Below, piece by piece: positions 1 through 18,873 of a stretch of DNA of 20,099 nt. Origin of the DNA: Candidatus Hermodarchaeota archaeon (GTDB lineage: Archaea; Asgardarchaeota; Thorarchaeia; Thorarchaeales; Thorarchaeaceae); the NCBI GenBank assembly GCA_048885865.1, contig JBHLLF010000046.1, positions 1-20,099 on the forward strand. Reading direction: 5' to 3'. The translations under genes and the position numbers were made by a program. Below the pieces are notes generated by a model that saw only the letters and a list, made by a program, of their open reading frames with translations, had not been told where the DNA came from and made no database searches. The first letter of the stretch is position 1, and every line of letters begins with the position of its first letter.

Positions 1-524
1 ACGCGTCTGCCCATCTGATAAGCCATTCGCATGGCTTCCATATCATTCCTGATATCGCCTACATTCATGGCAAATCCTATTGGCCAAGAAACTCCCCCAG
101 GTACAATCATCTCCTTTACAAGCATAAAGAAAAGCATTTGATTGAGAGCAATATCTGCTCCAGATTTTCTTGCTACCACAAATGCGGCCCCGATCTTACC
201 CTCAAGGTGAGCGAATCGGCCAACGCGATCCAGAAAGCTCTTCATTTGAGATGTAACGCTTGCATAATGCACAGGAGAGCCAAATATAATGCCATGGGCC
301 TTGTACATCTTTTCAATTATAGGATTCAGGTCATCATCTTGACTACAGCGCCCAAGTTCATAGCATTTCAGATAATGTTTGCACGGATTGATGTCAAAGT
401 CAGCAAGCTCAATGAACTCAATACTAGCACCATACTCCTCTGCGGCATCAAGAGCGGTTTCAACAAGAATTGATGTGTTGCCACCTTGCCTATTGCTGCC
501 AGAAATGCCTAGAACCTTTGCCAT
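1..524 (-). CDS. Iron-sulfur flavoprotein (Isf) / multimeric flavodoxin, NADPH-dependent FMN reductase family; 3' end runs off the window
   Basis: Not in the ORF track; translated by hand from ATG at 524: MAKVLGISGSNRQGGNTSILVETAL...INPCKHYLKCYELGRCSQDDDL...IIFGSPVHYASVTSQMKSFLDR...GKIGAAFVVARKSG. It has the flavodoxin FMN-phosphate loop (GSxRxxGNT), the GSPVH/Y motif and an Isf-type Cys cluster. No stop before position 1. Confidence 0.9.
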   Translation of the reverse strand, partial: MAKVLGISGSNRQGGNTSILVETALDAAEEYGASIEFIELADFDINPCKHYLKCYELGRCSQDDDLNPIIEKMYKAHGIIFGSPVHYASVTSQMKSFLDRVGRFAHLEGKIGAAFVVARKSGADIALNQMLFFMLVKEMIVPGGVSWPIGFAMNVGDIRNDMEAMRMAYQMGRR

Positions 525-593
525 ATTGAAACCTTCGGGGAGAGTTAAGTTACAGGAATTCAAATCGCAACCTTGTTCTTAAATCTCATTATA

Positions 594-661: not shown

Positions 662-2734
662 TCATTCATTATCAGCTGAAAGAGGTGTTTCGTCCTCTTC
701 CTGTTCATCTTCGGGACCATAGAGGTGCTCATTCTTGTCCTTCAAGGATCTTCTGAAATCAGAGAACTCCATTGCACCTAGTGGGAGCAACGCCATGACC
801 ATTAGGAAGGCTCCTAACCATACGAAAGACACGATTGGAAGAATCCTCGCTTGGAGCTCTACGCTATAAGTCATTGGAGCAACCTGGTCAAACGTCCGAA
901 GAGACACAAATACATCCCGTAGAGCTGTCGTCTGCACGAAGACATCCTGTGTCAATGATTGCCATTGCGGATTTCCTTTGACAACTAGGAGGCCCAACCA
1001 GGCTGAGTTTCCTTCTATCACCGCGATTACTACTTGTAATTCGAAATCATACTCATTTATCCAATACACCAAGTTGATTTCACTCACTCCAACTGTTATT
1101 CCTGAGGAGCCCAGTTCATGCGATTGATCTTTGAGATATGTGTTGGTTTGATTGATGACCACATTCTCACTCAGAAAGACTCCCAGAAGCAGTACGATTA
1201 GACCAAGGTGTAGCATGAGGCGTCCCATTCTTCGCATTGTGAATGCACCAACCTCTTTTCCTGCAATGGTTCGGGCGAATGCAACAATAAGGTATCCTAA
1301 GGCAAAGATAGCAATAGGAATCAACGCGTTGGCTTGCCAATAGTATGTGGGCAGAGCTTGCTCAGTTGTAACTGTCAGAACAGCAAGGACTCCACCAACT
1401 CCTAGCAGAGCAAGAATGCCAATTGCCTTCATCTTTGCCCTCAGAATTGTACTTCTCATGCAGTAGAATGCAGATACAATCAAGAGCAAAGACCCAGCGT
1501 AAAATCCAGCTCGGAAGAACTCTATTCCTATCGACACCATATTCTCAGTAAATTCTGCTGGGTTTGTGATGGCACCAACGAGATTTATTGCTGCAGGCAG
1601 CACAACGCCTGAAACTGAGGTGGTCAGTATAACCAAGATGCCTATCAGTGCAACCTTTAATGAGAAATCTCTAAGATTTGAGAGCGAAAAGAAGCTCCAC
1701 CCTTGATCTTCCTCATCGTCAGACATGTCTACATACCCTGCCCTAATGGTGACTAAAGTTGCCAATAGGAAATTGAATACAACAGTGGCAAACATGGTCC
1801 AGCTGACTATACTAATAGTGAACCCATGCACTGAGTTTAGAACTCCACTTCTAGTGACCCATGTTGCATAGATAACAGTCACATAGGTAAAGACCAAGAA
1901 TGAATCTCTCAAGACATCATTATTCTTGAAGATTGCCTTCGCATGAAAGTATGCTGTGAGGAGTAGCCATGGTACCAGCGAGGTTGTTTCGACTGGGTCC
2001 CACGCCCAATAACCTCCCCACCCCAGGACAATGTATGCCCAGTAGCCGCCAATAGCTATACCAACTGAGAGTATGATCCATGAAGCAACTGTCATAAATC
2101 GAGTGAGTGAATCCAACACAGGAATGGGCTCAGCGTTGCGCTCTTCTGAACGAACTGTATATCCGGCGAGCTTCACTGAGAAGGGAACCACTGCAATTGC
2201 GTAGGCTATGAACACAATAGGCGGATGAATGACATTCCAAATAGTGCTGAGCAATGGATTCAGTCCTATACCATCAGCTGGAGTAGCACCCCCGAGAAAA
2301 GGTCTGAATGGATCAGAAGCTAGGGTATTGATTCCGATTAGAATGGTTTGAAGAGTCAGCAGTATTGCGCCTCTGTATACGATTGTATCATCCTCGTATC
2401 CTCGCAAAGAAATACGATAAGTGACAAGCAATAGAAATGAAATAGCAGTCCAGAATAGCAATGACCCAGACTGTCCTGCCCATAGCGCGGAGAGCTTGAG
2501 ATACCAGAGAGCCTCAATATTGGTTGTGACATAGACATACTCGTACTGAAACTGGTTGGTGAATATCAGGTTGCCCATCCAGAACAACGCACCCAATGCA
2601 GATAGACAACCTATTGATGTCAGAATGATCGATATCGTATCGTAGTTCTGAATTCTGGGACCAATTAGCAGAAGTATGATGTCCAACGAACCGACAATGA
2701 TAGCCAAAATTAGTAGAATTGTACCAAGATCCAT
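662..2734 (-). CDS. ccmF: Cytochrome c heme lyase, CcmF/NrfE family (System I holocytochrome c synthase), 690 aa
   Basis: Polytopic membrane protein with W(A)GQSGSLLFW, GLNPLL, HPP, the WWD domain WGGYWAWDPVET, TAYFH, TRSGVLNSVHGF and MLHLG. All four conserved CcmF histidines appear present. GGAGG RBS upstream. Confidence 0.93.
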   Translation of the reverse strand: MDLGTILLILAIIVGSLDIILLLIGPRIQNYDTISIILTSIGCLSALGALFWMGNLIFTNQFQYEYVYVTTNIEALWYLKLSALWAGQSGSLLFWTAISFLLLVTYRISLRGYEDDTIVYRGAILLTLQTILIGINTLASDPFRPFLGGATPADGIGLNPLLSTIWNVIHPPIVFIAYAIAVVPFSVKLAGYTVRSEERNAEPIPVLDSLTRFMTVASWIILSVGIAIGGYWAYIVLGWGGYWAWDPVETTSLVPWLLLTAYFHAKAIFKNNDVLRDSFLVFTYVTVIYATWVTRSGVLNSVHGFTISIVSWTMFATVVFNFLLATLVTIRAGYVDMSDDEEDQGWSFFSLSNLRDFSLKVALIGILVILTTSVSGVVLPAAINLVGAITNPAEFTENMVSIGIEFFRAGFYAGSLLLIVSAFYCMRSTILRAKMKAIGILALLGVGGVLAVLTVTTEQALPTYYWQANALIPIAIFALGYLIVAFARTIAGKEVGAFTMRRMGRLMLHLGLIVLLLGVFLSENVVINQTNTYLKDQSHELGSSGITVGVSEINLVYWINEYDFELQVVIAVIEGNSAWLGLLVVKGNPQWQSLTQDVFVQTTALRDVFVSLRTFDQVAPMTYSVELQARILPIVSFVWLGAFLMVMALLPLGAMEFSDFRRSLKDKNEHLYGPEDEQEEDETPLSADNE

Positions 2735-2751
2735 CTATTATGCCTCCTAAT

Positions 2752-4932
2752 CTAGTCACTCCTTGATGAACGCCTTCTTCTAGGCCGCTTCTTTGTAGAC
2801 CGTTTCCGTGCTTCTTTCTTGAGCACGCGTTGTGTAGACATAGCTCTCTCCCTACGCAATCTCGTAAAGCCATATCCTATTCCGGGTGCAATGACTAGCC
2901 CTATAGCAGCAAATGTTTGCCATGCAGCTCCAGGCGAGATAGGCCTTAATGCAAGGATGGTTAATCTATAGAATGCGCTTTCGCCTACATTTTGCGACTC
3001 GTCGACAGCTAGGCAATAGAACGAAACAACGTCGTCAGCATTGAAATTGCCTATATCCGCTACCCAAAGCATGTATTCACCATCAACATCATACCAGGTC
3101 ATATTCAGTGGTGCGTAAACTCCATCATTGACCTTCCAAAACAATTGGCACGATAATATGATGCTGTGAATTGGATATTCGTATATTCCAAACTCAACGA
3201 TAACGTCTTGACCTGCCAAGATCTCATCAGCTGGATAGGTTTGCCTTAATAGTACCACTGGCGCGTAGATGTCCAACTTCACATTGAAGAAGTAATTGCC
3301 AGCTATGAAGACGTTGCCTAGGGTGTCGTTGGCAAAAACGACGAAATTGACCTTGGTGCCATCTGGAAGCGGATTAATGGTGGTATTGAAAGTGCCAAGA
3401 ATATTCGCGTTTTCTGGGATCAGGACAATTGAGAGATTGGTTTGCCCGCTCTCATATTCTATTGACATATTTGCGAAAACTGTATCGATTCCGTCCGAGT
3501 CGGATGCTGTTACGAGCAGTGTGATATTATCAGTTGGTCTTGGATTCGTTGGCGACACTCGTACATATGAAATGATTGGAAGCCCAAATGACCAAATCCG
3601 TTCAAGAGCCAGAACCCCGAGACCTTGAACTGCAGCGATATGAATCCTCCACCCTTCAGAAAATACATATCCCTCTCTGTCACTATTCTGGAAGAATCCG
3701 CCATATTCTATATCCCATAGTTTGGCAATGACGAGGTCCAATGTATCTATTGTGAGTTGAATGAAGAATGTGTTAGAGGTGACTTCATAGAGATCTTCAA
3801 GAGTCAAAACCATTTGGAACTGGATTTCTGAGTACTTGAACCACTTAACATCCTCATCGTCGAGGGGGTCATATGGATCTCCATCCAGGGTTTCAGCAAA
3901 CCAAGCACCGTACAATTGATCCCAATTATTAGCCAGAACCGCATAGAATGTATCTTCAGCCCAGTCAAGATAGGTAGTGTTGTGGGTAATTTGATATCCT
4001 CGCAAAAGTGCCCTAATTGCCATTGCATTGATATCTGTAACGACAGTTCTCGCAGGTCTCTCCACCTCGTTGACAACTGGGTCCCCCCCAGTTCTATTAA
4101 CCGCTAATCGCATCCCAAAATAGTGGCTTGTTTCATTAATGTAAGGCATATGCTTAATCATGAAATCCAATGAACGATTAGCCATAGCAATAAGTGTAGC
4201 ATTCCCAGTGGATTCCCCAGCATCATAAAGAGCTGATATACCTAATGCAATGTGGTCCAACCTCTTTCCGTCAGCAGGATAAACCTCGTAAATGTATGAT
4301 GGAATGTTTAGCGAGCCATTGCGCAACGTGAAGAAATGGAAACCTCCATTTTCCGAATCGTACAACATATCAGTTAGGCAGTCGATAGCGCTCTGCTTCT
4401 CTGCTGTAAAATTAAGTGTTGAATCGATATTCTCAGCGATTACAAGCGCATTGTAGGCATATGCCTGAATTCCAGCTCTTTTGGATTGAGTAACCTCTGT
4501 TGGTGACCAAGTATTGATGTAGAATCCCGGGTATACTGGATCCATGTATAGCTCGACCATTTTAGTCGCCATCTTTCCAATCACTGAGAATAGCGTTGCA
4601 TTACCTGTTATATTGTAAATCCTACTCAGTGCAGAGATTGCCCAATAATAGTCGGCAAGAGCAGACCCATTCAAAATCAGGTTGTATTGAAAGTCAGCTT
4701 CGTGGAAGACCGTGCCATCATATACATTGACCAAGTTGTCTATCAATGCACTACCTGAGGCAAAAGCGAAGTCTAGATAAGAGCTGATGTTTTGCGGTGT
4801 TTGTGCTTCAATAGGAGTATGAATGGTCTCTAGTTCAAACGTGAAACCTGTATTCTTCTGAGTATGTAGTGGTCCCATATTCAATATGATTAAGACCAGT
4901 ATAAGTGAAAGCAGCACTGGTTTCTTTTTCAT
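2752..4932 (-). CDS. Membrane-anchored surface protein: six-hairpin (alpha/alpha)6 glycosidase/AGE/YyaL-like barrel plus Ig-like domains, C-terminal TM helix and basic tail; function unknown
   Basis: N-terminal signal peptide (MKKK + hydrophobic stretch). Repeated helical-hairpin units (ALSRIYNITGN, ALYDAGESTGN, ALLRGYQITHN, TLEDLYEVTSN; turns D-x3-GGF / W-D-x3-G). Beta-rich modules (VSPTNPRPTDNITLLVTASDSDGIDTV...FANDTLGN). TM helix near the C-terminus and more than a dozen NxS/T sequons. Confidence 0.7.
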   Translation of the reverse strand: MKKKPVLLSLILVLIILNMGPLHTQKNTGFTFELETIHTPIEAQTPQNISSYLDFAFASGSALIDNLVNVYDGTVFHEADFQYNLILNGSALADYYWAISALSRIYNITGNATLFSVIGKMATKMVELYMDPVYPGFYINTWSPTEVTQSKRAGIQAYAYNALVIAENIDSTLNFTAEKQSAIDCLTDMLYDSENGGFHFFTLRNGSLNIPSYIYEVYPADGKRLDHIALGISALYDAGESTGNATLIAMANRSLDFMIKHMPYINETSHYFGMRLAVNRTGGDPVVNEVERPARTVVTDINAMAIRALLRGYQITHNTTYLDWAEDTFYAVLANNWDQLYGAWFAETLDGDPYDPLDDEDVKWFKYSEIQFQMVLTLEDLYEVTSNTFFIQLTIDTLDLVIAKLWDIEYGGFFQNSDREGYVFSEGWRIHIAAVQGLGVLALERIWSFGLPIISYVRVSPTNPRPTDNITLLVTASDSDGIDTVFANMSIEYESGQTNLSIVLIPENANILGTFNTTINPLPDGTKVNFVVFANDTLGNVFIAGNYFFNVKLDIYAPVVLLRQTYPADEILAGQDVIVEFGIYEYPIHSIILSCQLFWKVNDGVYAPLNMTWYDVDGEYMLWVADIGNFNADDVVSFYCLAVDESQNVGESAFYRLTILALRPISPGAAWQTFAAIGLVIAPGIGYGFTRLRRERAMSTQRVLKKEARKRSTKKRPRRRRSSRSD

Positions 4933-5109: not shown

Positions 5110-6573
5110 CTAGCGGCGTCTGCCCACTAGAAGTCCTAGAACCAATCCGATGACGATACCGCCAACACTGCCGCCTATTAGAAGCAGAGTGTCTCCACCC
5201 AATACAGTAACAGTATTAGTGACTGTATTGGTGACAGTAACTGTGACGCCCTCAGCAGTGGCCTCATAGAATGTGGCCTTCGCATTTAGTAGATCTGCAT
5301 AGACTGCATTCAATTCGGCAAATACCTGAGTGCCATCATGGAATCCGGATGAGCCATCGTATCCGAAGTACCCTACAAGTGTTTCTGCTTCGTCAATTGC
5401 AGCCTGCATTGCATTGGCGGCGGCAACGTCAGCTCCAGCTGACGCATTGTATGTCGCTACCTCTGCGGCCATTGCTGAAGCCTCAGCAGAGATTTCCTGG
5501 GTCAGAGCCAGAAATGCATCTTGACGCATCTCAAGCTGGCCGAGAGCCCATGTGTCCATGCCTTCATGACACCCTAGCTCATCTACATCTCTTGCTTGAC
5601 CGCAAGCAATGTCAGGATCTAGAGCAAAGGTGTGATTCAGGTCATAACGCCACGCGTCACGGTAGTACACTAGGGAATATCCATGACAGTCAGTGCACTT
5701 CACGCCAGCAAGATTGTGAGACCCTCCAATCCAAACCTCATACTGTGGATGGCGGGCTCCATTGTGACAAAGTCCACACAGTTCGGAAGTATTAACTGCC
5801 CGAATCTGAGCGTTGCCTTCTACTGCTGTCCAGTTAGAATGCACTGCGTGACAAGCAGGACAAGAAATCGAGTTGTAGTCTCCGGCGGGATCAAAGCCGA
5901 GGTCAACGGCTGCGTCTCCGTAGTTAGATAGCGAGCCAGGATTCTGCTGATGGATGAAGGCTTCAGTAGACATGCAATGCATACATTCTGATGATGCATG
6001 AGTGCTTGTTCTTAGATCCGTCAGCGAGTTGGCATGAGCCGAGTTCTGCCATTCTGGATATTCGTTGCGGGTCGCGTGATAACCAGGGTTGTGACAGTTA
6101 CCACAGACCGATCCGTTATAGGTAACATAGGGCTGCGTCACGTCATGGCAAGCAAGACATGTGACTCCCAAGTTAACCCATGACCCATTACCGTCATTAC
6201 CGGCTGGATCATATCCAGTTGCGTGACAGGGTGCACACGTACTGTTGTAGTACGTGGCATTCCGTTCACCATGCAGACCTATTACATACGTCCCATTGAA
6301 CGTCTGCTCATACCCTTCATCGGCGTGTCCACTCTCATTCCAGTAGTTCCACTGATCTGGATGACAACCACCGCAGGTAAGATTGTCTTGCGTTGGATTC
6401 GGGAACGCCAAACCAAAATCATGCTCATATCTATCAGGATTCCCAACCAATGTGATCGGAATGCCTGATCCCGTTGGTCCAAGGAAAATTGCAAAGCCTA
6501 TCAAGCACAGGAAGAGGTAGTAACCTGCGACCATCCGCTTGTTGACTTCTGGAACCTCTTTATAGTATACCAT
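5110..6573 (-). CDS. Surface-anchored multiheme cytochrome c (7 CxxCH + CxxCM + CX10CH; c554/c552-NrfA-like architecture), 487 aa
   Basis: Canonical motifs CGGCH, CAPCH, CLACH, CGNCH, CPACH, CGLCH and CTDCH, plus CMHCM and CGQARDVDELGCH. Repeated W-x2-S-x-H distal-ligand motifs. C-terminal helical domain with DGSSGFH, as in NrfA/c552-like MHCs. N-terminal hydrophobic segment, Thr-rich linker, C-terminal TM helix and RRR. Confidence 0.92.
   Translation of the reverse strand: MVYYKEVPEVNKRMVAGYYLFLCLIGFAIFLGPTGSGIPITLVGNPDRYEHDFGLAFPNPTQDNLTCGGCHPDQWNYWNESGHADEGYEQTFNGTYVIGLHGERNATYYNSTCAPCHATGYDPAGNDGNGSWVNLGVTCLACHDVTQPYVTYNGSVCGNCHNPGYHATRNEYPEWQNSAHANSLTDLRTSTHASSECMHCMSTEAFIHQQNPGSLSNYGDAAVDLGFDPAGDYNSISCPACHAVHSNWTAVEGNAQIRAVNTSELCGLCHNGARHPQYEVWIGGSHNLAGVKCTDCHGYSLVYYRDAWRYDLNHTFALDPDIACGQARDVDELGCHEGMDTWALGQLEMRQDAFLALTQEISAEASAMAAEVATYNASAGADVAAANAMQAAIDEAETLVGYFGYDGSSGFHDGTQVFAELNAVYADLLNAKATFYEATAEGVTVTVTNTVTNTVTVLGGDTLLLIGGSVGGIVIGLVLGLLVGRRR
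5204..5247 (-). repeat. Short coding tandem repeat encoding the VTVTVTNTVTNTVTV stalk
   Basis: 6/12-bp periodic GTGAC/CAGTA units inside the cytochrome gene, just before the C-terminal TM helix. Confidence 0.6.
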
Positions 6574-7024: not shown

Positions 7025-9625
7025 GTGAAGAAGCTCACACCTATGCAAAGGCAATATCTCGAATTGAAAAAGCAATATCCAGACTGTATTCTATTATTCA
7101 GACTAGGTGATTTCTATGAGATGTTCAATGAAGATGCAAAGGTGGCGAGCAAGGATCTCGATATCGTATTGACCTCCAGAGGAGAGGGAGTCGCAAAATG
7201 GCCTATGTGCGGAGTTCCTCATCATGCAGTAGATGGCTATGTTGCCAAACTCCTTGCATCTGGTCACACTGTTGCCATCGCTGACCAGGTTGAAGATGCA
7301 TCTCAGGCCAAAGGCCTAGTGAAGAGAGATGTTGTTCGTGTAGTGACTCCTGGTACAGTCCTAGAAACAGGCATGCTGGAAGATGCCACCAATAATTACT
7401 TGCTTGCAATAATTGAGGACTCTGAAAAAATTGGTATGGCTGCAGTTGATGTGTCTACTGGAGAGTTTGTCGCAACAGAGTTTGATGGAAACTACCTGAG
7501 CGAAAACACACTGAATGAGCTTGGGAGGATAAAGCCTTCAGAAATACTACTCCCCGAAACCATATCGAAGAATCAGACTATGCGTTCGACTCTTGAGGAA
7601 CTGGGAGTGCGGCTGACATTTCGAAATGACATGGATTTCTCAGCAAGAGATGCGGAACAAAGACTCAAGGACCAATTTGGTGTGACCACGATTGAGGGCT
7701 ACGGCTTAGGCGACAAGGATGTCGCTCTTGGTGCCGCGGGAGCTGTAATGGCCTACCTGCAGGAAGTGCATAAGGCAAATGCAGTAACGCTTACCGGGCT
7801 CCAGACCTACACGATTGACTCTCATATGGTAGTCGACAGTACTACACAGAGAAACTTGGAGCTCATACGAAATGCCAGGGACGGAACCCCTCGCGGAACG
7901 CTCCTTAGCGTCTTATCCAAGACTGTCACCCCAATGGGCAAGCGAAAACTCAAACAATGGATTCTCCAGCCACTCACAGATATTCCTTCGATCGAGAGAA
8001 GACTTGATGCAGTTGATGAGTTGGCAAGGACCGCACTCACGCGGAAGGCTGTTTCAGATAGTCTAAGGAACCTTGGAGACCTTGAGAGAATCACCAGCAG
8101 GATCGTGTTTGGGGTTGCGGGTGCGAGAGACCTTCTTGGCCTCAGAATTGCACTTGAGAAACTGCCTAAGATTCGCAAGACGCTGGAGGAATGCAAGGCA
8201 GAACTCCTTCAATCTTCTGCCAAGTCAATTGACCTCTTGAAGAATCTGACAAAGACCTTGAAGGCTGCAATCGTCGATGACCCGCCGGTGAGTGTCCGCG
8301 ACGGAGGCATGATTCGTGAGGGCTTTGACGAAGGGCTTGATGGATTGAAGGGATCAATATCATCTGATAAAAAGTGGATTGCATCACTGCAAGCGAGGGA
8401 GAGAAGAAGAACAGGCATCAAGTCACTGAAAGTGGGGTACAACAAGGTCTTTGGATATTACATCGAGGTCTCGAAGTCGAACCTAAGCCTGGTTCCAGAT
8501 GATTACGATAGGAAACAGACACTGACCAATGCAGAGAGATATATCACTCCGGAATTAAAGGAAAAGGAGGCTGCTGTTCTAGCAGGAGAGGACAAGATAA
8601 ACGCTCTCGAATTTGAGATATATGAGAACCTTAGAAACCAGGTCAGAGATGCAATAGAAGAACTACGGGCAAACTCAGAGGCTATCGCGGCTGGTGATGT
8701 GCTGGCATCATTAGCAGAAGTGGCAGTGAACAGGAGATACACCAGACCCAAACTAACAGATGGAACCAGAATCAAGATTGTTGAAGGTAGACATCCTTCT
8801 CTCGAGATGATACTCGGTGCAAATGAGTTCGTTCCCAACAATGTTGAGATAGGTGACGGTGGAAGTTCGCTCATTATTGTTACAGGTCCAAATATGGCTG
8901 GTAAGTCGACATTTATGCGCCAGTGCGCGTTGATAGTGCTCCTCGCGCAGATGGGTTCCTTCGTACCTGCGAAGTCGGCAGAGATTGGTATGGTAGACAG
9001 AATCTTCACAAGAGTTGGAGCCTTTGATGACCTCACAGCTCGTCAGTCAACTTTCATGGTTGAAATGATTGAGACCGCTAACATCATCAACAATGCTACT
9101 GAGAAGAGCTTGGTAATTCTTGATGAGATTGGAAGGGGAACATCAACCTATGACGGCATGGCACTTGCTTGGGCAGTGGCTGAACGGATCGTGCAGATGA
9201 AGTCACGCGCCATGTTTGCAACTCACTTCCACCAATTGACTGAGATGGCAAGTACTCATCATGGTGTCAAAAACGTTCATACATTGGCTAGAGAGTCTGG
9301 CGATACTATTGTGTTTCTGCACAAAGTGGTCGATGGAGGAACCGACAAGAGCTATGGTGTTCAAGTAGCGGCTTTGGCAGGTATCCCTGACGAGGTGGTG
9401 AAGAGAGCACGCTCAATGCTAGCAAGCTTGGAAAAGCAGAGTGCAGTAAATCTAAGGGAAAGCGGCGAAGCCTATGAGCCTGTCCAGACAAGCCTAGAAG
9501 CACTAACCATTGAAGACCCAATTGTTGAGCGTATCAGACACATGGACCTAGATCGAACGACACCTGTCGATGCCCTTGTCAAGCTAAAGGAACTTCAGGA
9601 TGAGGCTCGTTCAAGAGAAGACTGA
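7025..9625 (+). CDS. mutS: DNA mismatch repair protein MutS (MutS1), 866 aa
   Basis: TPMQRQY, mismatch-recognition motif GDFYEMF, MCGVPHH, VVRVVTPGT, Walker A TGPNMAGKST, STFMVEM, Walker B ILDEIGRGTST, FATHFHQL and SYG. GTG start with GGGAGG RBS. Confidence 0.98.
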   Translation: MKKLTPMQRQYLELKKQYPDCILLFRLGDFYEMFNEDAKVASKDLDIVLTSRGEGVAKWPMCGVPHHAVDGYVAKLLASGHTVAIADQVEDASQAKGLVKRDVVRVVTPGTVLETGMLEDATNNYLLAIIEDSEKIGMAAVDVSTGEFVATEFDGNYLSENTLNELGRIKPSEILLPETISKNQTMRSTLEELGVRLTFRNDMDFSARDAEQRLKDQFGVTTIEGYGLGDKDVALGAAGAVMAYLQEVHKANAVTLTGLQTYTIDSHMVVDSTTQRNLELIRNARDGTPRGTLLSVLSKTVTPMGKRKLKQWILQPLTDIPSIERRLDAVDELARTALTRKAVSDSLRNLGDLERITSRIVFGVAGARDLLGLRIALEKLPKIRKTLEECKAELLQSSAKSIDLLKNLTKTLKAAIVDDPPVSVRDGGMIREGFDEGLDGLKGSISSDKKWIASLQARERRRTGIKSLKVGYNKVFGYYIEVSKSNLSLVPDDYDRKQTLTNAERYITPELKEKEAAVLAGEDKINALEFEIYENLRNQVRDAIEELRANSEAIAAGDVLASLAEVAVNRRYTRPKLTDGTRIKIVEGRHPSLEMILGANEFVPNNVEIGDGGSSLIIVTGPNMAGKSTFMRQCALIVLLAQMGSFVPAKSAEIGMVDRIFTRVGAFDDLTARQSTFMVEMIETANIINNATEKSLVILDEIGRGTSTYDGMALAWAVAERIVQMKSRAMFATHFHQLTEMASTHHGVKNVHTLARESGDTIVFLHKVVDGGTDKSYGVQVAALAGIPDEVVKRARSMLASLEKQSAVNLRESGEAYEPVQTSLEALTIEDPIVERIRHMDLDRTTPVDALVKLKELQDEARSRED

Positions 9626-9822
9626 GCTCACGAGGCGTATTCAGAGATATGCAAGGCGAAAAACCATGAAAGTCTATGTTTCTACTCTATTAGAATAGAA
9701 CGTTTAATCTCTCATCCCTCCCAGAATTTCAAGTCATCTTCGTATCAAAACCTTCTTAGACCCTTCTGAGCGAAACGACCCTCTTGTAATGAGCGATTGC
9801 CTTGAGGTTCGAAGAAGTGGTA

Positions 9823-10374
9823 ATGACTGAGATAATCATTGTCTTGGGTGTCATCTATCTCCCTTTCCGAATCTGGCTAGATGAATTCAAGCTTCAAGAT
9901 GAACTCCTATTTCGACGAAGATACTTCAGCAGGTTCTTCTCCTATTATTTAGGCATAGCGCTGTTACTTGGACTTAGCGCATACCCGTTCAATATCATGG
10001 TAATGGTGGCATTCCCAATTCTGGTGGTGACCTCCATTTGGGATATCAACTTCTATCGCAGATTTAGTTCGCAGACTTACTGGACAAAAAATAAGTGTTG
10101 GATGCTAATCGAGAGAATAACCATGCACCCACCTGTGGTGTTAGTTGCGATCTTCATGATTTTCAATGGGGCTAGGAACTACATAGAACCACCGAATCTG
10201 CTTCTGATGGCAGGAATTATCGTTCTTCTTTACTTACCATTTTTCCTATTTGACGAGAGATGGACAAAACGATACAAGTGGCCTGAAGCAGTAATTATTG
10301 TTGGTCTCTTTCTGGCCTCAGGATTATCATTGATTCTTGCAGAAGCAATCCTTTGGGGGGTTCCGATTTGGTGA
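9823..10374 (+). CDS. Hypothetical polytopic membrane protein (about 6 TM helices)
   Basis: Open frame with alternating hydrophobic segments and basic loops. ATG at 9823 preferred over TTG at 9802. Its stop overlaps the next gene's start (GTGA). Confidence 0.75.
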   Translation: MTEIIIVLGVIYLPFRIWLDEFKLQDELLFRRRYFSRFFSYYLGIALLLGLSAYPFNIMVMVAFPILVVTSIWDINFYRRFSSQTYWTKNKCWMLIERITMHPPVVLVAIFMIFNGARNYIEPPNLLLMAGIIVLLYLPFFLFDERWTKRYKWPEAVIIVGLFLASGLSLILAEAILWGVPIW

Positions 10375-11645
10375 AAGAGCTAAAATCATCATTCAAGTCA
10401 TTCTGGAGTTATCTTCGGGAGTCTCGTCTGCTTACATTCGGACTTGCTTTTAGTCTAGTCTATTATCTTGCTGTAGTGATACTGTTTGTATTCTACTTGA
10501 CTCAAGGAGTATTAGCCGATACGATTTTCACAATGGACTTTCAAGTATTTTATGAATCAGGAATAGTGTTTCGAAACTCTCCTGGAGAAATCTACGCAGT
10601 TGCTCCAAATGAGTTACCATACAGATACCTTCCTTCGTTTGCTGCCATTATGGCGATATTCTCGCTTATCCCTTTAATGCCACTATACTTGATTAATATC
10701 TCCTTGATGATGATGATTAACTTTGGAATTGCTTTCCTTGTATTCTCAATTTGTCAGCATTTGGGAGTAACAACTTCTACAAAGAACTTCGAGAAGACAC
10801 TAGCAATTCTTTTCATCACGCCGCCTCATATCATCAATCTAGTTTTAGGCCAAATAACACATCTAGCAATATTCATCGTTCTTCTGGCGTTATACCTTCT
10901 TCAAACAAATGATGATGATTCTGTTCGTAGATTCCTCTTCATTGGAGCACTCATAGGTATTGCAACGGTGCTGAAACCATTCTTTATCGTTCTTTATTCC
11001 TTTATAATTCCAATTTCATTCACAGAGAGATTTAGTCTCAATGTCCCCCTAAGACCCGTCTTTGGAACAACATTGGGATTCCTAGCCACAATGCTACCAA
11101 ACGTTGTGTACTTCATTGCATTTCCGAGTGCGATTGACGAGTTTGTGCAGGTGAACTTCTCGGGTGGGTTACCCTATCAACACAGTACGAGTATCACACA
11201 ACTATTGGTTGATATTCTAAACTTGGGTGATTACACTACTATTGTTTTGATGATTATGTTGGTCATTGGTAGTTTCATATTTGTAAGAAGCTACTACAGA
11301 TTTGTTAGAACGCCTGCGTCCGAGAAGAACTATCTTCATCACTTCACTGATGTGATATTCCTATTCCTCATGGTGTATGCTGAATCTTGGTTTCTATTCA
11401 TAGCAGTATTGTATGCGTTTCTTGCACCGTCTATGCTTCAGCTTTACGCTTGCGAAGTTAATGGAAGTGAAAAGCGCTATCTAGATCTTCTATGGTCAGG
11501 TTCGAACAATCTTCTAGCATTCTTCTCAATCGGTATTGCTTTGGATTTCTTGTTGCTGGGATTTGATCCCATAAATCCGATTTGGATAGCTATCCTCTAT
11601 ATCTTGTATCAAAGGGAATATTGTCTAAATATTAATAGTTCATGA
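10371..11645 (+). CDS. Glycosyltransferase family 87 (GT-C fold, DUF2029/PimE-like)
   Basis: First external loop DFQVFYESG, then YRYLP, NLVLGQ and a K-P motif (TVLKPF), with about 10-11 TM helices. GTG at 10371 is coupled to the upstream stop. Confidence 0.82.
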   Translation: MKELKSSFKSFWSYLRESRLLTFGLAFSLVYYLAVVILFVFYLTQGVLADTIFTMDFQVFYESGIVFRNSPGEIYAVAPNELPYRYLPSFAAIMAIFSLIPLMPLYLINISLMMMINFGIAFLVFSICQHLGVTTSTKNFEKTLAILFITPPHIINLVLGQITHLAIFIVLLALYLLQTNDDDSVRRFLFIGALIGIATVLKPFFIVLYSFIIPISFTERFSLNVPLRPVFGTTLGFLATMLPNVVYFIAFPSAIDEFVQVNFSGGLPYQHSTSITQLLVDILNLGDYTTIVLMIMLVIGSFIFVRSYYRFVRTPASEKNYLHHFTDVIFLFLMVYAESWFLFIAVLYAFLAPSMLQLYACEVNGSEKRYLDLLWSGSNNLLAFFSIGIALDFLLLGFDPINPIWIAILYILYQREYCLNINSS

Positions 11646-11847
11646 TTATCTCATGCATTTTATTGGCCGCGCTCCTTCCATCAGCTATAGCATGAGCTAA
11701 TTCGGTTCTCACTTCTCAGCAAGCATGTAGCCATCCCGAAGCAAAATCACTTGCGTGTTCTTGACTAGATTCAATAGGATAGAATGCATATCGAAGAATA
11801 TCATTAGTCAAGGGATTTGCTAAGAAGGACATCTGGAGGATTGGAAG

Positions 11848-12765
11848 GTGATTCGGGCTGTCAATGTGACTAAGCATTTCGAAGATATCGTTGCGGTTGA
11901 CAATATCTCTCTTGATGTTCCCCAAGGAACGATTCTTGGTATGGTGGGACCGAATGGCGCAGGAAAGACAACTCTTGTACGTATGATGATTGGTATTCTA
12001 GCTCCAACACTTGGAAATTGCTACATTGGAGAAACACAGTCAAATCGTCTCTCCACTGAGGAACGAGCCCGTACAGGATACATGACTCAGCTCAAATCGC
12101 TCTACCCCGATTTGACCGCACGAGAAAATCTCGATTTCTTTGCATCTAGCTATGGAGTCAAGAATCAGCAAAGAAGAAAGGAGCTAGTCGAGCAGGCAGC
12201 CAGATTCACTCGGATTACAGAATCACTAGACCGTACAGTGGATGTGCTCAGTGGTGGCACAATTCAACGAGTGAGTCTTGCTTGTGCAATAGCTCATGAT
12301 CCCGAAGTAATATTCCTTGACGAGCCCACAGTGGGGGTCAGCCCCGAATTGAGATTGGAATTTTGGAATCATTTCCACAATCTTGCTAATGAAGGTAAGA
12401 CGATTGTTATGACAACACACTATCTCGATGAGGCAACGAGATGCGATAATGTTGCTATGATCTTTGAGGGAAGATTAATCGCTCATGGTCATTCGGACGA
12501 CCTGATTGGTTCTCTGCCTCTTGAGAGTACAATCACTGGCACTATTGACCCTAGCAATTCCACTCAGCTAAAGAGCATCTTGGAGAATCTAGCTCCCACT
12601 GAAATCAAAGGAAACCGATTCACTATAAAATCAGCAGACAGTGATGTCAAATTCAAAGTGTTTCAGGCTCTAACACGAGCTCATTTCCAAATGAAGGACC
12701 TTGTTGTGAAGCAACCTGGTCTTGAGGAGGCATTCGCTTATTATGTCAGGAGGTCGCGACAATGA
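11848..12765 (+). CDS. ABC-2 type exporter ATP-binding protein
   Basis: Walker A GPNGAGKT, signature LSGG, Walker B FLDEP, H-loop TTHYLDEA and a C-terminal extension ending LEEAF. GGAGG RBS. Confidence 0.95.
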   Translation: MIRAVNVTKHFEDIVAVDNISLDVPQGTILGMVGPNGAGKTTLVRMMIGILAPTLGNCYIGETQSNRLSTEERARTGYMTQLKSLYPDLTARENLDFFASSYGVKNQQRRKELVEQAARFTRITESLDRTVDVLSGGTIQRVSLACAIAHDPEVIFLDEPTVGVSPELRLEFWNHFHNLANEGKTIVMTTHYLDEATRCDNVAMIFEGRLIAHGHSDDLIGSLPLESTITGTIDPSNSTQLKSILENLAPTEIKGNRFTIKSADSDVKFKVFQALTRAHFQMKDLVVKQPGLEEAFAYYVRRSRQ

Positions 12766-14252
12766 GTCGCAGTATCAGCTCTCACCGTGTTGGTACAATG
12801 ATACGGAGAATCTTCCGTCAGATTCGTCGAGACCGACCAACTCTTGCCTTAATGGTTCTTGCACCATTACTGATCACCTTCCTGTGGTCATTCATTCTTT
12901 CAGGAGAGGTTGTAAATGTCCCAACGGCTGTATGCATTCAGGATACCCCTCTTGAAGAGAGCCTTGGAGCCACTGTAGTATCCTTATTCGAAGAAAATGA
13001 AAATGTGACAGTCTTTGAGAGGTTTCGTGCTAATGCTTTTGATGATCTTGGAGAATCGATACAAGCAGTTCTCTTATTGCCCTTCAATTTTACAGAGGGC
13101 CTTCTAACAGGTGGAAATGTCACGCTCGAATTGCATGTTAATGTGACTAGCGAGATGGAAGCAAACTATATTCTAGCAATGATAGGAAATGTCACTACAC
13201 AGGCTGCCAGCGAGGTATTTGGCAGCAGAGGCGTTGAGATAAAACGTAACATAACATTCTCAGTACCAATTCCTCCAAGTCCGATTGACCTATCATTCAA
13301 CCTTTCTCTTGTGAATGAAGATGTTGGATTCACAACTACGATTGGTGAAATCCTTGAAGACACCTTGTCAGAAAATGGTAATGTGTCTATCACCATGTGT
13401 GATAGCCCTGAGGAAGTTGTGGAGTTAATCGAATCCAGATCTGTAGTGGCAGGGATCTATATAGGTCCTAATTTCACAAAAGCCACGATAAGTGGTGAAG
13501 AACAGCCCATAGATCTATTCATGAATGGTATACAAGCCGCAGAAGCTGCTTCAGCATTGACGGCAATTCAGATGTCACTATCTGAATCAATCTCCCAGGC
13601 TTTTGGGCGAGAGAGTGAAACCAGTGTGGATCTTACATATGTCTATGGAGAAGCAGGAATGCAAATGATAGAAATTATGGGCCCAGCTATTATTGGATTC
13701 ATGGGTGTTTTCTTCGGTTTTCTTATTCCAGGAATTTTCTTCCTACGAGAAAGACAACAAGGCACATTGGAGAGAATGCAAAGTACGCCCTTATCAGATC
13801 TTGAGATTGTACTCGGGTACTCTGTTGCGTTCATTGGCGTTCTCTTAATTCAGACAATAGTCATTAGCATTGTAATAATCTACATCTCTCCAGGAATACT
13901 TTCGTCTATCTTATTGTTGATTCCTCTAGTTGTTCTCTTGGCAATAGGATCTGTCACACTTGCACTGGCAATTTCGGTTCGAATGAAAAATGAACTGCAG
14001 GTGATACAGCTCATGCTCGTCTTCATCCTCCCCCAGATGTTCCTATCTGGACTCTTGTTCCCCTTGAGTCAGATGCCATCATACATCGCCTTGGTCCCTT
14101 ACTTCTTTCCTCTCACATATTATGTGGAGGCAGCGAGAGCAGTGGCTTTCTATAATGCATCCATTCTAGATGAAATCATACCTGTGATAATCATGATACT
14201 ATACTGCTTGCTTGGCATCACGGCATCTGTGGTCAAACGATCCAAGAGGTGA
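12762..14252 (+). CDS. ABC-2 type exporter permease with tandem-duplicated extracytoplasmic domain
   Basis: N-terminal RRDR-TM1, a large external region, RERQQGTLER, PQMFLSGLLFPLSQMP and PLTY. ATGA overlap with the ATPase gene. Confidence 0.92.
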   Translation: MSRSISSHRVGTMIRRIFRQIRRDRPTLALMVLAPLLITFLWSFILSGEVVNVPTAVCIQDTPLEESLGATVVSLFEENENVTVFERFRANAFDDLGESIQAVLLLPFNFTEGLLTGGNVTLELHVNVTSEMEANYILAMIGNVTTQAASEVFGSRGVEIKRNITFSVPIPPSPIDLSFNLSLVNEDVGFTTTIGEILEDTLSENGNVSITMCDSPEEVVELIESRSVVAGIYIGPNFTKATISGEEQPIDLFMNGIQAAEAASALTAIQMSLSESISQAFGRESETSVDLTYVYGEAGMQMIEIMGPAIIGFMGVFFGFLIPGIFFLRERQQGTLERMQSTPLSDLEIVLGYSVAFIGVLLIQTIVISIVIIYISPGILSSILLLIPLVVLLAIGSVTLALAISVRMKNELQVIQLMLVFILPQMFLSGLLFPLSQMPSYIALVPYFFPLTYYVEAARAVAFYNASILDEIIPVIIMILYCLLGITASVVKRSKR

Positions 14253-14327
14253 GCCCCAATTCAATCTATGCAATCACTTGCGTTGGTGCGTTAGGTTATA
14301 ACATCAGAAGAGAAAGTATCGCAAGCG

Positions 14328-14390
14328 TGGTCAACGTTTCTTGACTTGCTGGTCAAGGTTGATAGAATAATATGCAACTTTGTCAAGTCA
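14328..14390 (+). promoter_or_regulatory. Operator-like repeats upstream of the wHTH regulator
   Basis: CTTGAC-N6-GTCAAG (14340-14357), direct repeat TGGTCAA(C/G)GTT at 14328 and 14350 (22-bp period), and a further GTCAAG at 14382. Confidence 0.5.
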
Positions 14391-14403
14391 TACGTGATGA
14401 TAA

Positions 14404-14868
14404 ATGAGCTCGGATGAAGTGTTTGAGGCAATCTCTCACCCATTGAGAATAGACATTCTCAAGACTCTCTCAAAGAAGCCTATCGGATTTGCAGATCTTA
14501 AGAGGGAATTACGGATTTCAAGCAGTGGCCTCCTGGATTTTCATCTTAAGAAGATGGCACCCATTGTAGAGAGGAATAGTGATGGTCTTTACACTCTCAA
14601 TCAAGCAGGCTTCGCTGCACTATATGCAGTGAATGTCGTTTCACGGAAGGGCTGGCAGAGAAGAGCTCTCTTCAGCAATATATGCGTATACGTTGTGATG
14701 AATGTCTACATGTGGTTTGCAATACCCGAGTTCTTTCTTCTGGTGCTTATCCCCACCACTGCCTGGATTCTTTTCTATGCCTATTGGTCAATAGTGAAGA
14801 GAAGAGTGCACCTAACAGGTCGAGAGAATAAGAAAATGGAAATTGGAGACGAAAGTCAAAATGACTAA
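14404..14868 (+). CDS. ArsR-like winged-helix transcriptional regulator with C-terminal transmembrane helices
   Basis: VFEAISHPLRIDILKTL...FADLKREL..SSSGLLDFHLKKM...YTLN..G is a wHTH. It is followed by two hydrophobic helices (LFSNICVYVVMNVYMWF; FFLLVLIPTTAWILFYAYWSIV) and KRR. Confidence 0.85.
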   Translation: MSSDEVFEAISHPLRIDILKTLSKKPIGFADLKRELRISSSGLLDFHLKKMAPIVERNSDGLYTLNQAGFAALYAVNVVSRKGWQRRALFSNICVYVVMNVYMWFAIPEFFLLVLIPTTAWILFYAYWSIVKRRVHLTGRENKKMEIGDESQND

Positions 14869-15640
14869 TGCTGTGAGCATGAGAAATGTTGTGAAATCCT
14901 TTGGAGAACTAATAGCTGTAAACGATGTCTCATTTGAGGTTCAGGAAGGAGAGATATTCGGAATCTTGGGACCCAATGGAGCAGGGAAGACTACAGCTAT
15001 CAAAGTCCTCATGGGTCTTTTGGATTCGGACTCAGGTTCAGCACATGTCTTTGGAATCAGCTCGAAAGAGGACCCCATTGGTGTCAAGAAAATCGTAGGG
15101 TATGTGCCTGAGGAACAGCAGCTCTACGAGTCCCTGACACCGAGAGAGATGTTCGAGTTTATAGCTTCAGTTAGAGAACTTCCAGAAGAGAAAGCTAGCA
15201 AGCGTGTAAAGGAATTTGTGCATGCTCTTGATTTTGAGAAGTATTATGATGCAATGGTCGTGACCTTATCGCAGGGAAATAAGCAGAAGGCGATGCTCAT
15301 CGCAGCGCTCCTTCACAAACCTAGGCTCCTAATCCTTGACGAGCCATTCTCTGGACTTGATGTTCGTACAGCTTCGATCATGAAGGATGTCATAAGAATT
15401 CACGCTGAAAACGGCGGCTCTGTATTGTTGAGCACACATATCATGGAAGTAGCTGAGGCAATGTGCGACCGAGTAGGAATCCTTGATGAAGGCGAGCTAG
15501 TTGCTGTCGGCACACTTGAAGAGCTACGAGGTGTTTCACAGAGAGAGGGTGCAACTCTGGAGAAAGTCTTCTTGGCCTTGACTGAGCAGGAAGATGAGGT
15601 ACGCGAGGGTATCGACCAACTTAGGGAGGCACTTGCATAG
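14861..15640 (+). CDS. ABC exporter ATP-binding protein
   Basis: GPNGAGKT, LSQGNKQ, LILDEPFSGLD, LSTHIMEVAE and LEKVFL. ATG at 14861 overlaps the regulator stop. Confidence 0.95.
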   Translation: MTNAVSMRNVVKSFGELIAVNDVSFEVQEGEIFGILGPNGAGKTTAIKVLMGLLDSDSGSAHVFGISSKEDPIGVKKIVGYVPEEQQLYESLTPREMFEFIASVRELPEEKASKRVKEFVHALDFEKYYDAMVVTLSQGNKQKAMLIAALLHKPRLLILDEPFSGLDVRTASIMKDVIRIHAENGGSVLLSTHIMEVAEAMCDRVGILDEGELVAVGTLEELRGVSQREGATLEKVFLALTEQEDEVREGIDQLREALA

Positions 15641-17283
15641 TGAAATTCTCAGAGCGATGGAAACTTGCAGGAATCATTTCAGGAGAGGTGAGGTTCAAAG
15701 GTTATCTGGAGATGAATCCATCGAACCTTGCGAGGGTGAAAGAGAATCCGGAGAAAATCGCTCGAAGTATAAAGTCTAGCAGCCGATTCAGTACTTTCAT
15801 AACAACTGCTCTTGTGTTCTCGCTAGCCGTATTAACTGCAGTTATGGCTTTTGTAGATGACAGCATCGGTGTTCCCGAGACACGGTTGGCAGTAGGACTC
15901 TCGCTCTTCCTAGTTCTCAGCTTTGTATTGTTGATATTCCTCAATCTGTCTGTGACCACCGGCTTCTTCACTGCTGACGTTATCAGTTTCCCTGCAACTC
16001 TGCCATTAAGCAAAAGAGACCTCGATGAGCTATCATTACTTGCCTTCATCAGAGTGTTCATCGCACCAACAATTCTGATTCTCACTATCTTTCCAGTGAT
16101 CACGTTTATCGCAATAGGATCAGGTCCTGCTCTTGTGGCACTTGCTGGGTGCGCTGCAACTGTGTCACTCGCATTAGGAGCATTGACAAAGCTCGCAATT
16201 TGGTTTCGAAGGCAGTCCCTTCAAGTCGATGGCTCAAAAGCGAATACGCTCGTCAGAGTGTCAGCATCAATAGGACTTGCACTTGGTATGGTAGTCGCGT
16301 TTAGCATGGGTAGCTGGCTGTCCCCTCTGATTCATTTCATTGCTGACCTGTCTACTGGAATAGGCAATCAAGGATCATCATTTCTAGCCTTGTTATTTCC
16401 ATTCTCGTTTGGATTCCTGGCGTCTGCAGTGCAGTTCGGCCTTGCACTACCCTACGCCACTATCCTTGCAGCTTTAGGTGCCTCATGTGTGTATGCAATG
16501 CTAGCAGTCATATCTTATCGGCGAACAGGTAATGCACTCCAACGGGTCACTGTGGGAGGAGTATCGAGTAAAAGGACTCTTGAGCTGCGTGAAATCACAC
16601 TGAAGACAAAGACAGTTCTAAGGTCAATCATCAACAAGGATCTCAAACTAGCGACACGAAATATTGGCTCTTCGTTTGTATTCATCATCCCGCTATTCCT
16701 GGCAGTCTTCCTCTATCCAATGATGGCAGGCTGGTCTGAGTCCGAGGCATTACGAAGTCTCACGGCTCTCGTTTCCGTCGAATATGGCAACTTCTTTGCT
16801 GGAATTACAATCATCTCGGTCATGATGTTTGACACTCAAGGAGCCTCAATTCAGGCTGGACTTCCCATCAGATCAAGGAAGATGCTGAATGCCAAAGTTG
16901 CTATGGCTATGTTCCCATATGTGGGATCAATGATATTGGTCTCTATTCTCCTGTCATTGTTTCCATTGACATCACCCTTGATACCTCTCATTCCATTGGT
17001 TCAGATTCCTTGTGGATATACCGTCGCACTAGCTGTAGGCGCCTTCACATATTGGAAGCGAGGTGATGGTCGCGCTGTTTCCATTAGTGTAGTGGCAGAC
17101 TCTGGCATGACCTTTCTTGCTGCAATCATTGGAGCAGTAGTCGGGATTGTGCCACTAGTAGGCTATGGTGTAGCAATGATTCTAACTGGGAATCACATTA
17201 TCAGTCTGGCCACTCAGGTTGCAGTGATGATGGTAGAGCTTGTCCTGATTCAAAGCCAAGCTCCCAAGGTATTGAAGGATTGA
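15640..17283 (+). CDS. ABC exporter permease (about 12-14 TM helices, two-repeat type)
   Basis: Highly hydrophobic, with two TLPL/GLPI-type coupling motifs and a central IINKDLKLATRN segment. GTG start overlaps the ATPase stop. Confidence 0.85.
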   Translation: MKFSERWKLAGIISGEVRFKGYLEMNPSNLARVKENPEKIARSIKSSSRFSTFITTALVFSLAVLTAVMAFVDDSIGVPETRLAVGLSLFLVLSFVLLIFLNLSVTTGFFTADVISFPATLPLSKRDLDELSLLAFIRVFIAPTILILTIFPVITFIAIGSGPALVALAGCAATVSLALGALTKLAIWFRRQSLQVDGSKANTLVRVSASIGLALGMVVAFSMGSWLSPLIHFIADLSTGIGNQGSSFLALLFPFSFGFLASAVQFGLALPYATILAALGASCVYAMLAVISYRRTGNALQRVTVGGVSSKRTLELREITLKTKTVLRSIINKDLKLATRNIGSSFVFIIPLFLAVFLYPMMAGWSESEALRSLTALVSVEYGNFFAGITIISVMMFDTQGASIQAGLPIRSRKMLNAKVAMAMFPYVGSMILVSILLSLFPLTSPLIPLIPLVQIPCGYTVALAVGAFTYWKRGDGRAVSISVVADSGMTFLAAIIGAVVGIVPLVGYGVAMILTGNHIISLATQVAVMMVELVLIQSQAPKVLKD

Positions 17284-17383
17284 TTAGTTTAGCCACACTT
17301 GGCGAAGCTTAAAATACACGGACATGGGCCAATCCACTGAAGCTGCGCTTAGGCAGAACTAGTCATTAATGGATGATTGGACG

Positions 17384-18046
17384 ATGAAACCACTGTTGGC
17401 ACCATCAATTCTCTCTGCTGACTTCGCAAACTTGGAGCGAGATATCAAAGCCGCTGAGAAAGGGGGAGCAGACTACTTCCATCTTGACATAATGGATGGG
17501 CATTTTGTGCCCAATATCTCATATGGACCAATGATTGCCAAGACCATGAAACGCATCACGGATGTTCCATTAGATGCTCACCTCATGATAACAAAGCCAA
17601 GGGAGTATATACCCAAGTTCCTCGATGCTGGTGTAGAAATCCTTTATCCACATATCGAGGCTTCTTACGATGTCTATAGAACAGTACAGCTCATCAAAGA
17701 TCTTGGAGGGAAAGCGGGTATAACTCTGAACCCTGGAACTCCAGTTTCCCACGTCATGCCGCTTCTAGACCTACTCGATTCAGTTCTACTCATGAGTGTG
17801 TGTCCCGGATTCGGGGGACAATCCTACATAGAGCCGGTTACGGGGAAGATAACTGAACTGAGAACTTTGCTTGATGATTATAAGCCAGAAGTTCGCATTG
17901 CAATTGATGGAGGCGTAAAGAAAGATAACATAGCGAGCATTCGCAGGGCAGGTGCCGACTTCTTCATTGCCGGCTCAGCAGTATTCAAAGCTGATAACAT
18001 AGAGCAAGAAGTCAGAAAACTCAAAGCGCTGCTCGATACTGCCTAA
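17384..18046 (+). CDS. rpe: Ribulose-phosphate 3-epimerase
   Basis: APSILSADF, HLDIMDGHFVPN, DAHLM, LNPGTP, MSVCPGFGGQ, IDGG and AGSAVF. Start at 17384 preferred (17369 is an alternative). Confidence 0.97.
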   Translation: MKPLLAPSILSADFANLERDIKAAEKGGADYFHLDIMDGHFVPNISYGPMIAKTMKRITDVPLDAHLMITKPREYIPKFLDAGVEILYPHIEASYDVYRTVQLIKDLGGKAGITLNPGTPVSHVMPLLDLLDSVLLMSVCPGFGGQSYIEPVTGKITELRTLLDDYKPEVRIAIDGGVKKDNIASIRRAGADFFIAGSAVFKADNIEQEVRKLKALLDTA

Positions 18047-18115
18047 CCGAACCGTTTTAATCGAGTATAGTAGTTCATCCCAGCAATAACTCCATAGACG
18101 GGAGATGATGACAAG

Positions 18116-18763
18116 TTGAAGTTCTTTATTGACACTGCGAATGTCGATGCAATACGAAAGGCACACGAACGTGGCATGGTGGATGGTGTGACCACAAATC
18201 CATCTCTGGTCGCAAAAGAAGGGAAAGACTTTAGAAAAATCGTTGACGAGATAGCTTCTTTTGTTGAAGGCCCCATAAGCTTGGAAGTCGTGAGTGAAGA
18301 CGCAGAGGGCATGCTCAAAGAGGCTAGAGAGCTTAATAGCTGGATTGACAACGCCGCAATCAAGGTGCCTCTCACATGGGAAGGACTCAAGGCCACCAAG
18401 GTATGCGCAGATGAAGGTATCAAGACCAATGTCACTCTGTGCTTCAGCGCAAACCAGGCCATTCTAGCTGCCAAGGCAGGTGCAACATTTGTTTCACCCT
18501 TTATTGGTAGATTAGATGATATAGGTCACACTGGAATGGAACTCATTGAAGCCATCGTGCAAATCTACTCAAACTACGCCTTTGACACAGAGATTATCGT
18601 TGCCAGCATCAGGCACCCAATCCATGTCTATGAGGCTGCACTGCTGGGAGCCGATATAGCAACCATTCCTCCTGCAGTTCTCGACAAGATGGTGAAACAT
18701 CCTTTGACAGACATCGGCATTGAGAGATTCCTAGCTGATTGGGACAAGGTTCCTAAGAAGTAG
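18116..18763 (+). CDS. tal: Transaldolase (short TalC/FSA-fold subfamily)
   Basis: [14 protein letters not shown] and Schiff-base Lys in IKVP. Glu in ISLEV and Phe in SPFIGR are the transaldolase-type residues (FSA has Gln/Tyr). TTG start; BRE/TATA-like CCGTTTTAAT at about 18052-18061. Confidence 0.93.
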
Positions 18764-18873
18764 ATGTAGGGCAAAGAGTAATCAACAATCGCATGTAAAT
18801 CAGGGCGGGCGCAACACAAGAAGTAGGATATATCAGTATCCTGAAATCCTTCATCAATTGGAGGCACCAATCT

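Follow-up and report, generated by a model that had tools for sequence, protein, structure and literature searches.

The cytochrome locus and its neighbours

The window, i.e. the whole stretch of 20,099 nucleotides that was analysed (Candidatus Hermodarchaeota archaeon, contig JBHLLF010000046.1), carries on its minus strand, in this order, the genes for an OcwA-like nonaheme-type cytochrome of 487 aa (5110–6573), a membrane-anchored (α/α)6-barrel protein of 726 aa with an AGE-epimerase-like fold (2752–4932), and the heme lyase CcmF (662–2734), the sole ccmF found in this genome, which is 87% complete. The barrel protein has many invariant charged residues and matched no known family above the cut-off. 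A flavodoxin-like FMN reductase gene (3–563, minus strand) extends beyond the edge of the window and matches the terminal part of contig C66 (L004), on which ccmA, ccmB, ccmC and ccmE of the archaeal CxxxY type are located. The archaeal System I set (CcmABCEF), as defined by ccmA, B, C, F and a CcmE with CxxxY (PMC9084895), is present, and since the same gene order occurs in relatives, the ccm cluster is probably contiguous with the window. Inspection by eye of the region 7025–20097 indicated a mutS-like gene, two ABC-transporter pairs, an ArsR-like regulator, a ribulose-phosphate epimerase, a transaldolase and an amidohydrolase, which appear ordinary and unrelated to the cytochrome; two ORFs for membrane proteins (9802–10374 and 10353–11645) had no Pfam match. 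A promoter scan at the locus gave no signal above chance level.

The cytochrome comprises, in order, an N-terminal hydrophobic segment, the heme modules, a three-helix bundle, a Thr-rich stalk and a C-terminal membrane helix followed by an RRR tail, and it contains 11 N-glycosylation sequons; both hydrophobic ends, the stalk and the sequons suggest that it is displayed on the cell surface. Nine Cys-pair motifs were counted (all minus strand): seven CxxCH motifs, namely motifs 1–4 (C67, C113, C139 and C157; 6091–6375) and motifs 6–8 (C238, C266 and C293; 5683–5862), the motif CMHCM as number 5 (5971–5985), and the terminal, extended motif 9, CX10CH (5566–5604), whose spacer mostly measures 4–11 residues in relatives. 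Motif 1 of the relatives ranges from CX2CH to CX6CH. Homologues are labelled Thorarchaeota or Promethearchaeota, and contigs with relatives also turned up in RNA libraries.

Pfam assigned a c554 segment and a c552 (NrfA) segment, the layout being c554-like for hemes 1–4 and NrfA-like for hemes 5–9. The AlphaFold model (pLDDT 81) had as its top structural match OcwA, the nonaheme cell-surface reductase of Thermincola potens (PDB 6I5B), with a Foldseek E-value of 4e-11, a VIA Z-score of 20.7 and an rmsd of 3.0 over 318 residues, followed by OmhA (6QVM; Z 18.2), octaheme nitrite reductases and NrfA. OcwA has the same succession of c554-like and NrfA-like modules, sequence alignments placed all nine motifs in register with it, and both OcwA and OmhA share the three-helix bundle and the distal pair at site 5. 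Compared with OcwA, the archaeal protein differs in having CMHCM instead of CxxCH at site 5, and thus no proximal His at heme 5, an Arg-His instead of a His-His distal pair at this site (His-His in many relatives), no clear His-His at site 2, a His (H286) at the position of the probable Met ligand of OcwA heme 9, the CX10CH form of motif 9, membrane helices at both ends and an archaeal host.

Motif 5 in close relatives and in the wider family

As the sequence-only reading had reported, motif 5 reads TGT ATG CAT TGC ATG on the minus strand (C197-M198-H199-C200-M201); it lies within the open frame for 487 aa. The residue following the second Cys, whose tabulation in homologues had been proposed there, was determined in 121 close relatives with 39–100% identity, drawn from many samples, and found to be Met in 104, Gln in 15, and Leu and His in one each. 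The Cys pair never varied where covered (115/115 and 119/119), and His199 (5977–5979, minus strand), at the second x position, was kept in 118 of 119. At the DNA level, ATG occupied the Met201 codon (5971–5973, minus strand) in 41 of 49 distinct loci, with synonymous variation in the Cys, His and neighbouring codons. The site was covered by contigs from four runs of four studies, and among the differences listed none fell within 5971–5985. Because Met recurs in 104/121 relatives and ATG in 41/49 loci, Met201 is no product of error or chance, in agreement with the earlier argument that a single base error cannot account for it. CMHCM is real and under selection; sequencing error, a pseudogene or chance were excluded by the open frame and the conservation in more than 100 relatives.

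In position, CMHCM corresponds to the catalytic heme of NrfA, which has CxxCK: it is in register with OcwA motif 5 and, by a weak alignment, with CxxCK of an octaheme nitrite reductase. Hemes 5–9 of OcwA superimpose on NrfA, with heme 5 at the position of the active site, and OcwA hemes 2 and 5 are the five-coordinate, solvent-exposed sites (PMC6703420). The location of the motif in the middle of the chain, as first described, holds for the amino acid sequence; spatially it does not, as OcwA heme 5 ends the heme arrangement and sits in a solvent-exposed pocket. The pair R274-H275 (5749–5754, minus strand), aligned with the OcwA His-His pair 380/381, is retained, and H275 (His in 98 of 112 relatives) occupies the place where NrfA has its distal His, after the third and before the fourth motif of the pentaheme module; the Arg-His form is that of Ca-independent NrfA (PMC10716430). 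The preceding W-x2-S-x-H180 stretch had initially been read together with the motif. It does not belong to it, and by comparison with NrfA and OcwA, H180 would be the distal His of another heme, number 7. Seven conserved His residues (51, 83, 180, 245, 286, 314 and 412) equal the number of distal ligands of the seven other hemes, a count that would leave H192, H199 and H275 over near site 5. H192 (5998–6000, minus strand), conserved in 104 of 115 relatives and common to OcwA, is by this count probably not needed to ligate any of the bis-His hemes.

With NrfA the protein shares the C-terminal helices and a non-His residue at the equivalent heme position (Lys there, Met here), whereas it has nine heme motifs, only four residues from motif 7 to the distal His and no loop with the catalytic Tyr and Ca ligands. 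The database label "ammonia-forming nitrite reductase c552" was ruled out by this missing loop and by the NCBIfam NrfA score, which at 18.9 bits fell far short of the 595 required. The octaheme sulfite reductase MccA/SirA belongs to the same fold clade and likewise has an extended last motif, and it is matured by a dedicated lyase, but heme 5 is missing from it entirely and heme 2 serves as the active site. Heme 1 of Desulfovibrio vulgaris NrfH, a five-coordinate c-heme, has a proximal Met within the motif CXXCHXM (PMC8840924); that motif, however, retains a His for maturation, and the fold is unrelated.

For distant relatives, a profile search over 1.8 billion representatives yielded 217 modules in 113 proteins. 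The basic unit of this family is a module of three motifs, a branch heme followed by two chain hemes. A residue other than His was found at the branch motif in 67 of the 217 modules and at the following motif in none. The 67 comprised 50 Met (in 26 proteins), 5 Val, 4 Lys, 3 Arg, 1 Leu and other residues once each, with no Ile, although Met makes up 2% of residues; over the whole family, Gln, Leu, Val, Phe and Trp were also seen at the fifth position. Met forms are present in Hodarchaeales, Heimdallarchaeia and some bacteria, and also, with as many as eleven copies per chain, in repeat cytochromes of 1000–1800 aa. Within single proteins, His and Met versions alternate at the branch position of tandem repeats; one protein (P0299) has Val at this position in eight tandem repeats. 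In a tree calculated with the motif masked, Met forms fell into at least 5 separate places, and the CMYCH forms were nested in the Thorarchaeota Met clade. The nested CxxCH forms have flanks nearly identical to those of Met forms, and in general Met modules differ from His modules in their flanks only at the His199 position. At true loss of the site (L090 and P0218), both Cys and Met vanish together; in L090 motif 5 is gone altogether. The heme-2 position of related Hodarchaeales-type cytochromes (L087, L088, L090, L092) showed CCH, CCM or spacers of 8–9 residues.

The second x position co-varies with the fifth: His was found there in 38 of 50 Met modules, with Lys in 10 more, versus 4 of 1249 canonical motifs. 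In the nested CMYCH and CMRCH forms His199 is replaced by Tyr or Arg, while CVHCH keeps both His; conversely, CxKCM, CWACM, CAGCM and CCM are Met forms without His199. The Fisher test of the His199–Met201 association overstates the coupling, since a tree-aware test was not significant (of 8 independent pairs, about 4 agreed with it in direction and none opposed it; median p 0.125, with a few rows mis-parsed).

Possible heme attachment and ligation at motif 5

The reading preferred here is that CxHCM binds a Met-ligated c-type heme at an exposed redox site, to which a probability of 0.42 was assigned. Heme 1 of NrfH provides a chemical precedent for it. The features that mark a c-type heme motif, namely a conserved Cys pair at a heme position, an exported protein and a maturation system, were all found. 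Attachment of a heme at motif 5, irrespective of its ligand, is somewhat more probable than not: Cys pair, pocket flanks and distal pair have all been preserved, His and Met interchange, and true site loss removes Cys and Met together; unremodelled flanks and nested CxxCH forms likewise suggest that the pocket stayed heme-compatible. C197 and C200 would form the usual thioethers, Met201 would replace His or Lys as the proximal iron ligand, and R274 and H275 would line the opposite heme face. Depending on the role of H275, either a five-coordinate reactive heme (H275 as second-sphere residue) or a His/Met high-potential heme (H275 as sixth ligand) would result. Electrons would pass along the bis-His hemes 1-3-4-6-7-8-9 to the exposed side hemes 2 and 5, the potential of heme 5 being raised above that of heme 2 by Met, and could be exchanged at the surface with an external acceptor or donor, such as metal oxides, humics, or N- or S-oxyanions. 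By analogy with OcwA, cell-surface electron exchange is the most likely job of the protein, rather than dedicated nitrite ammonification.

Against Met ligation stand the Val, Leu, Phe and Trp variants, whose side chains cannot bind iron, the Gln of 15 close relatives, and the tight link to His199, which would not be expected from simple Met binding. Given these five alternative residues and the co-variation of His199 with Met, ligation by another His and a heme-free site are both serious competitors. In the former case the heme would sit on C197/C200 and be held by H275 (inverted ligation) or, after a loop rearrangement, by H199, with Met201 as a packing residue or weak ligand. Such an arrangement would cover the Gln, Leu, Val and Trp variants, with His199 or the distal His retained in several of them, and the nested CxxCH forms devoid of both, as if one His were enough. 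It fits poorly with the absence of the distal His in about 20 of about 100 CMHCM proteins, with the Met forms that lack His199, with CVHCH retaining both His, and with ordinary CxxCH geometry, in which the second x residue faces away from the iron. Heme αI of hydrazine synthase offers a precedent for a displaced His (PMC12607021). Overall, ligation by another His was judged unlikely.

The alternative to any heme at this position is a C197–C200 disulfide, structural or redox-active near heme 7, which would turn the cytochrome into an octaheme protein with a thiol-disulfide outlet. CxHC resembles the active-site motif of DsbA and PDI, in which the His tunes the potential, and in monoheme SoxA a heme site is reportedly replaced by a disulfide, a precedent that the paper checked did not confirm. 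A disulfide would account for His199, which as a second-x residue is nearly absent from true heme motifs, for the free choice of the fifth residue and for the failure of Ccm on CXXCM, and the protein is extracellular. Moreover, branch hemes are dispensable in this family, with HAO lacking heme 2 and MccA heme 5 (PMC6703420). Left unexplained would be the repeated Met, the distal Arg/His-His pair, the unremodelled flanks and the nested CxxCH forms, and the cytochrome fold is not thioredoxin-like; a disulfide was regarded as a minority possibility, somewhat less doubtful than ligation by another His.

A non-heme Cu or Zn site could be formed from some of C197, H199, C200, M201, H192 and H275, all of the conserved residues being of a metal-binding type and co-varying. 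MccA carries Cu(I), but the residue spacing of motif 5 fits no known copper motif. Variants with Lys, Arg or Val provide no metal ligands, and the distal His, judged from OcwA, would lie across the heme pocket from the Cys pair, so that a metal site appears improbable, even with a relative, MccA, that has no heme 5 (PMC6703420). Disulfide and metal site taken together, a heme-free motif 5 is a substantial possibility, short of an even chance; it would still be new, combining a heme chain and a disulfide or metal site in one protein.

Maturation genes, distribution and related loci

The rule that a heme lyase requires the CxxCH His, or Lys if the lyase is a special one, underlies the annotation and engineering of cytochromes. 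Searches for a natural CxxCM returned no description in the literature covered (subscription journals lay outside this coverage) and only an engineered variant that does not mature, in line with the initial statement that no characterised natural example was known; the motif is also missing from a 2024 list of known heme motifs (PMC11492766). A natural CxxCM at the branch-heme site thus apparently has not been described. Engineered CXXCM is matured neither by E. coli Ccm nor by HCCS (PMC4158909), and odd heme motifs are usually matured by their own dedicated lyase (PMC12285233). Because standard Ccm rejects CXXCM, attachment of a Met-ligated heme would probably need special help, probably from the neighbouring CcmF and the co-inherited barrel protein; His199 might speculatively act in recognition or as a transient heme ligand.

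The gene order cytochrome–barrel–ccmF was found at nearly all Thorarchaeota loci of sufficient length and at most Hodarchaeales and Heimdallarchaeia loci, i.e. it is kept in three Asgard groups. It was also duplicated as a unit, one genome (G211) carrying two such triplets, while second copies such as L035 and CxxCH paralogs lie outside it. The barrel was present in 48 of 301 Asgard genomes, nearly the same set as the cytochrome (49, in three families), and ccmE was more widespread (62). The barrel protein is accordingly put forward as a hypothetical maturation factor or partner of the cytochrome. The dedicated lyases NrfEFG, NrfI and CcsA1 offer a parallel, in that lyase and helical-repeat accessory genes likewise lie beside an odd-motif cytochrome; in contrast to NrfEFG, the accessory here is an (α/α)6 barrel instead of a TPR protein, and the ccmF, apparently the only one in the genome, scored far under the cut-off of the NrfE model. 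Being the only one found, this CcmF would also serve the ordinary motifs and the CMYCH paralog, and thus appears not to be a separate lyase in the sense of NrfE. Both this sharing of ccmF and the CLKCM bacteria, in two searched genomes of which no barrel orthologue was found, speak against the preferred reading. No homologue of the barrel turned up next to the giant repeat cytochromes. A genome with the cytochrome only as CMRCH (G239) lacks both barrel and ccmF in its assembly and, since ccmF is missing there too, says nothing on the specificity of the barrel for the Met type. At one Heimdallarchaeia-type locus (L089:3350–5417) the barrel is split over two ORFs, and one cytochrome each with CIHCM and CVHCH is encoded at this locus.

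Tentatively, natural CxxCM may rank with CxxCH and CxxCK as a third c-heme motif class, one that yields a Met-proximal heme of reactive or high-potential type. Asgard archaea at large and giant "wire" cytochromes would employ it, with CcmF and a new α-barrel factor lifting the His requirement of System I. A CxxCM heme, if confirmed, would introduce a new ligand type at the active-site position of NrfA and OcwA, point to a new maturation factor and raise the heme counts of many archaeal cytochromes. Natural controls exist in the His, Gln and Leu variants of close relatives and in the CMYCH paralog of the same genome. By its occurrence in Thorarchaeota, Hodarchaeales and Heimdallarchaeia, the family bears on the electron exchange of Asgard archaea with their surroundings, and on that of the present host, in which only one multiheme cytochrome besides the CMHCM protein was found.

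The other one, the CMYCH paralog (contig C37; L001:5281–6735, minus strand), has the canonical motif and no distal His; inspected by eye, its gene lies near that of a small Rab-like GTPase and membrane-bound dehydrogenase/antiporter-like subunits. Giant cytochromes of 1640–1790 aa were noted at L005:8001–13235, L046:8001–18941 and L048:9881–14809. They are built of three-motif units in tandem, every third motif being CAHCM/CAKCM (or CARCV), have ccmF nearby in divergent orientation, and are possibly wire-like. Two of these loci adjoin heterodisulfide-reductase-like genes, and L048 also encodes an octaheme HAO-family cytochrome with an fn3 domain (2010–3884, minus strand), downstream of ccmF and two uncharacterised membrane proteins.
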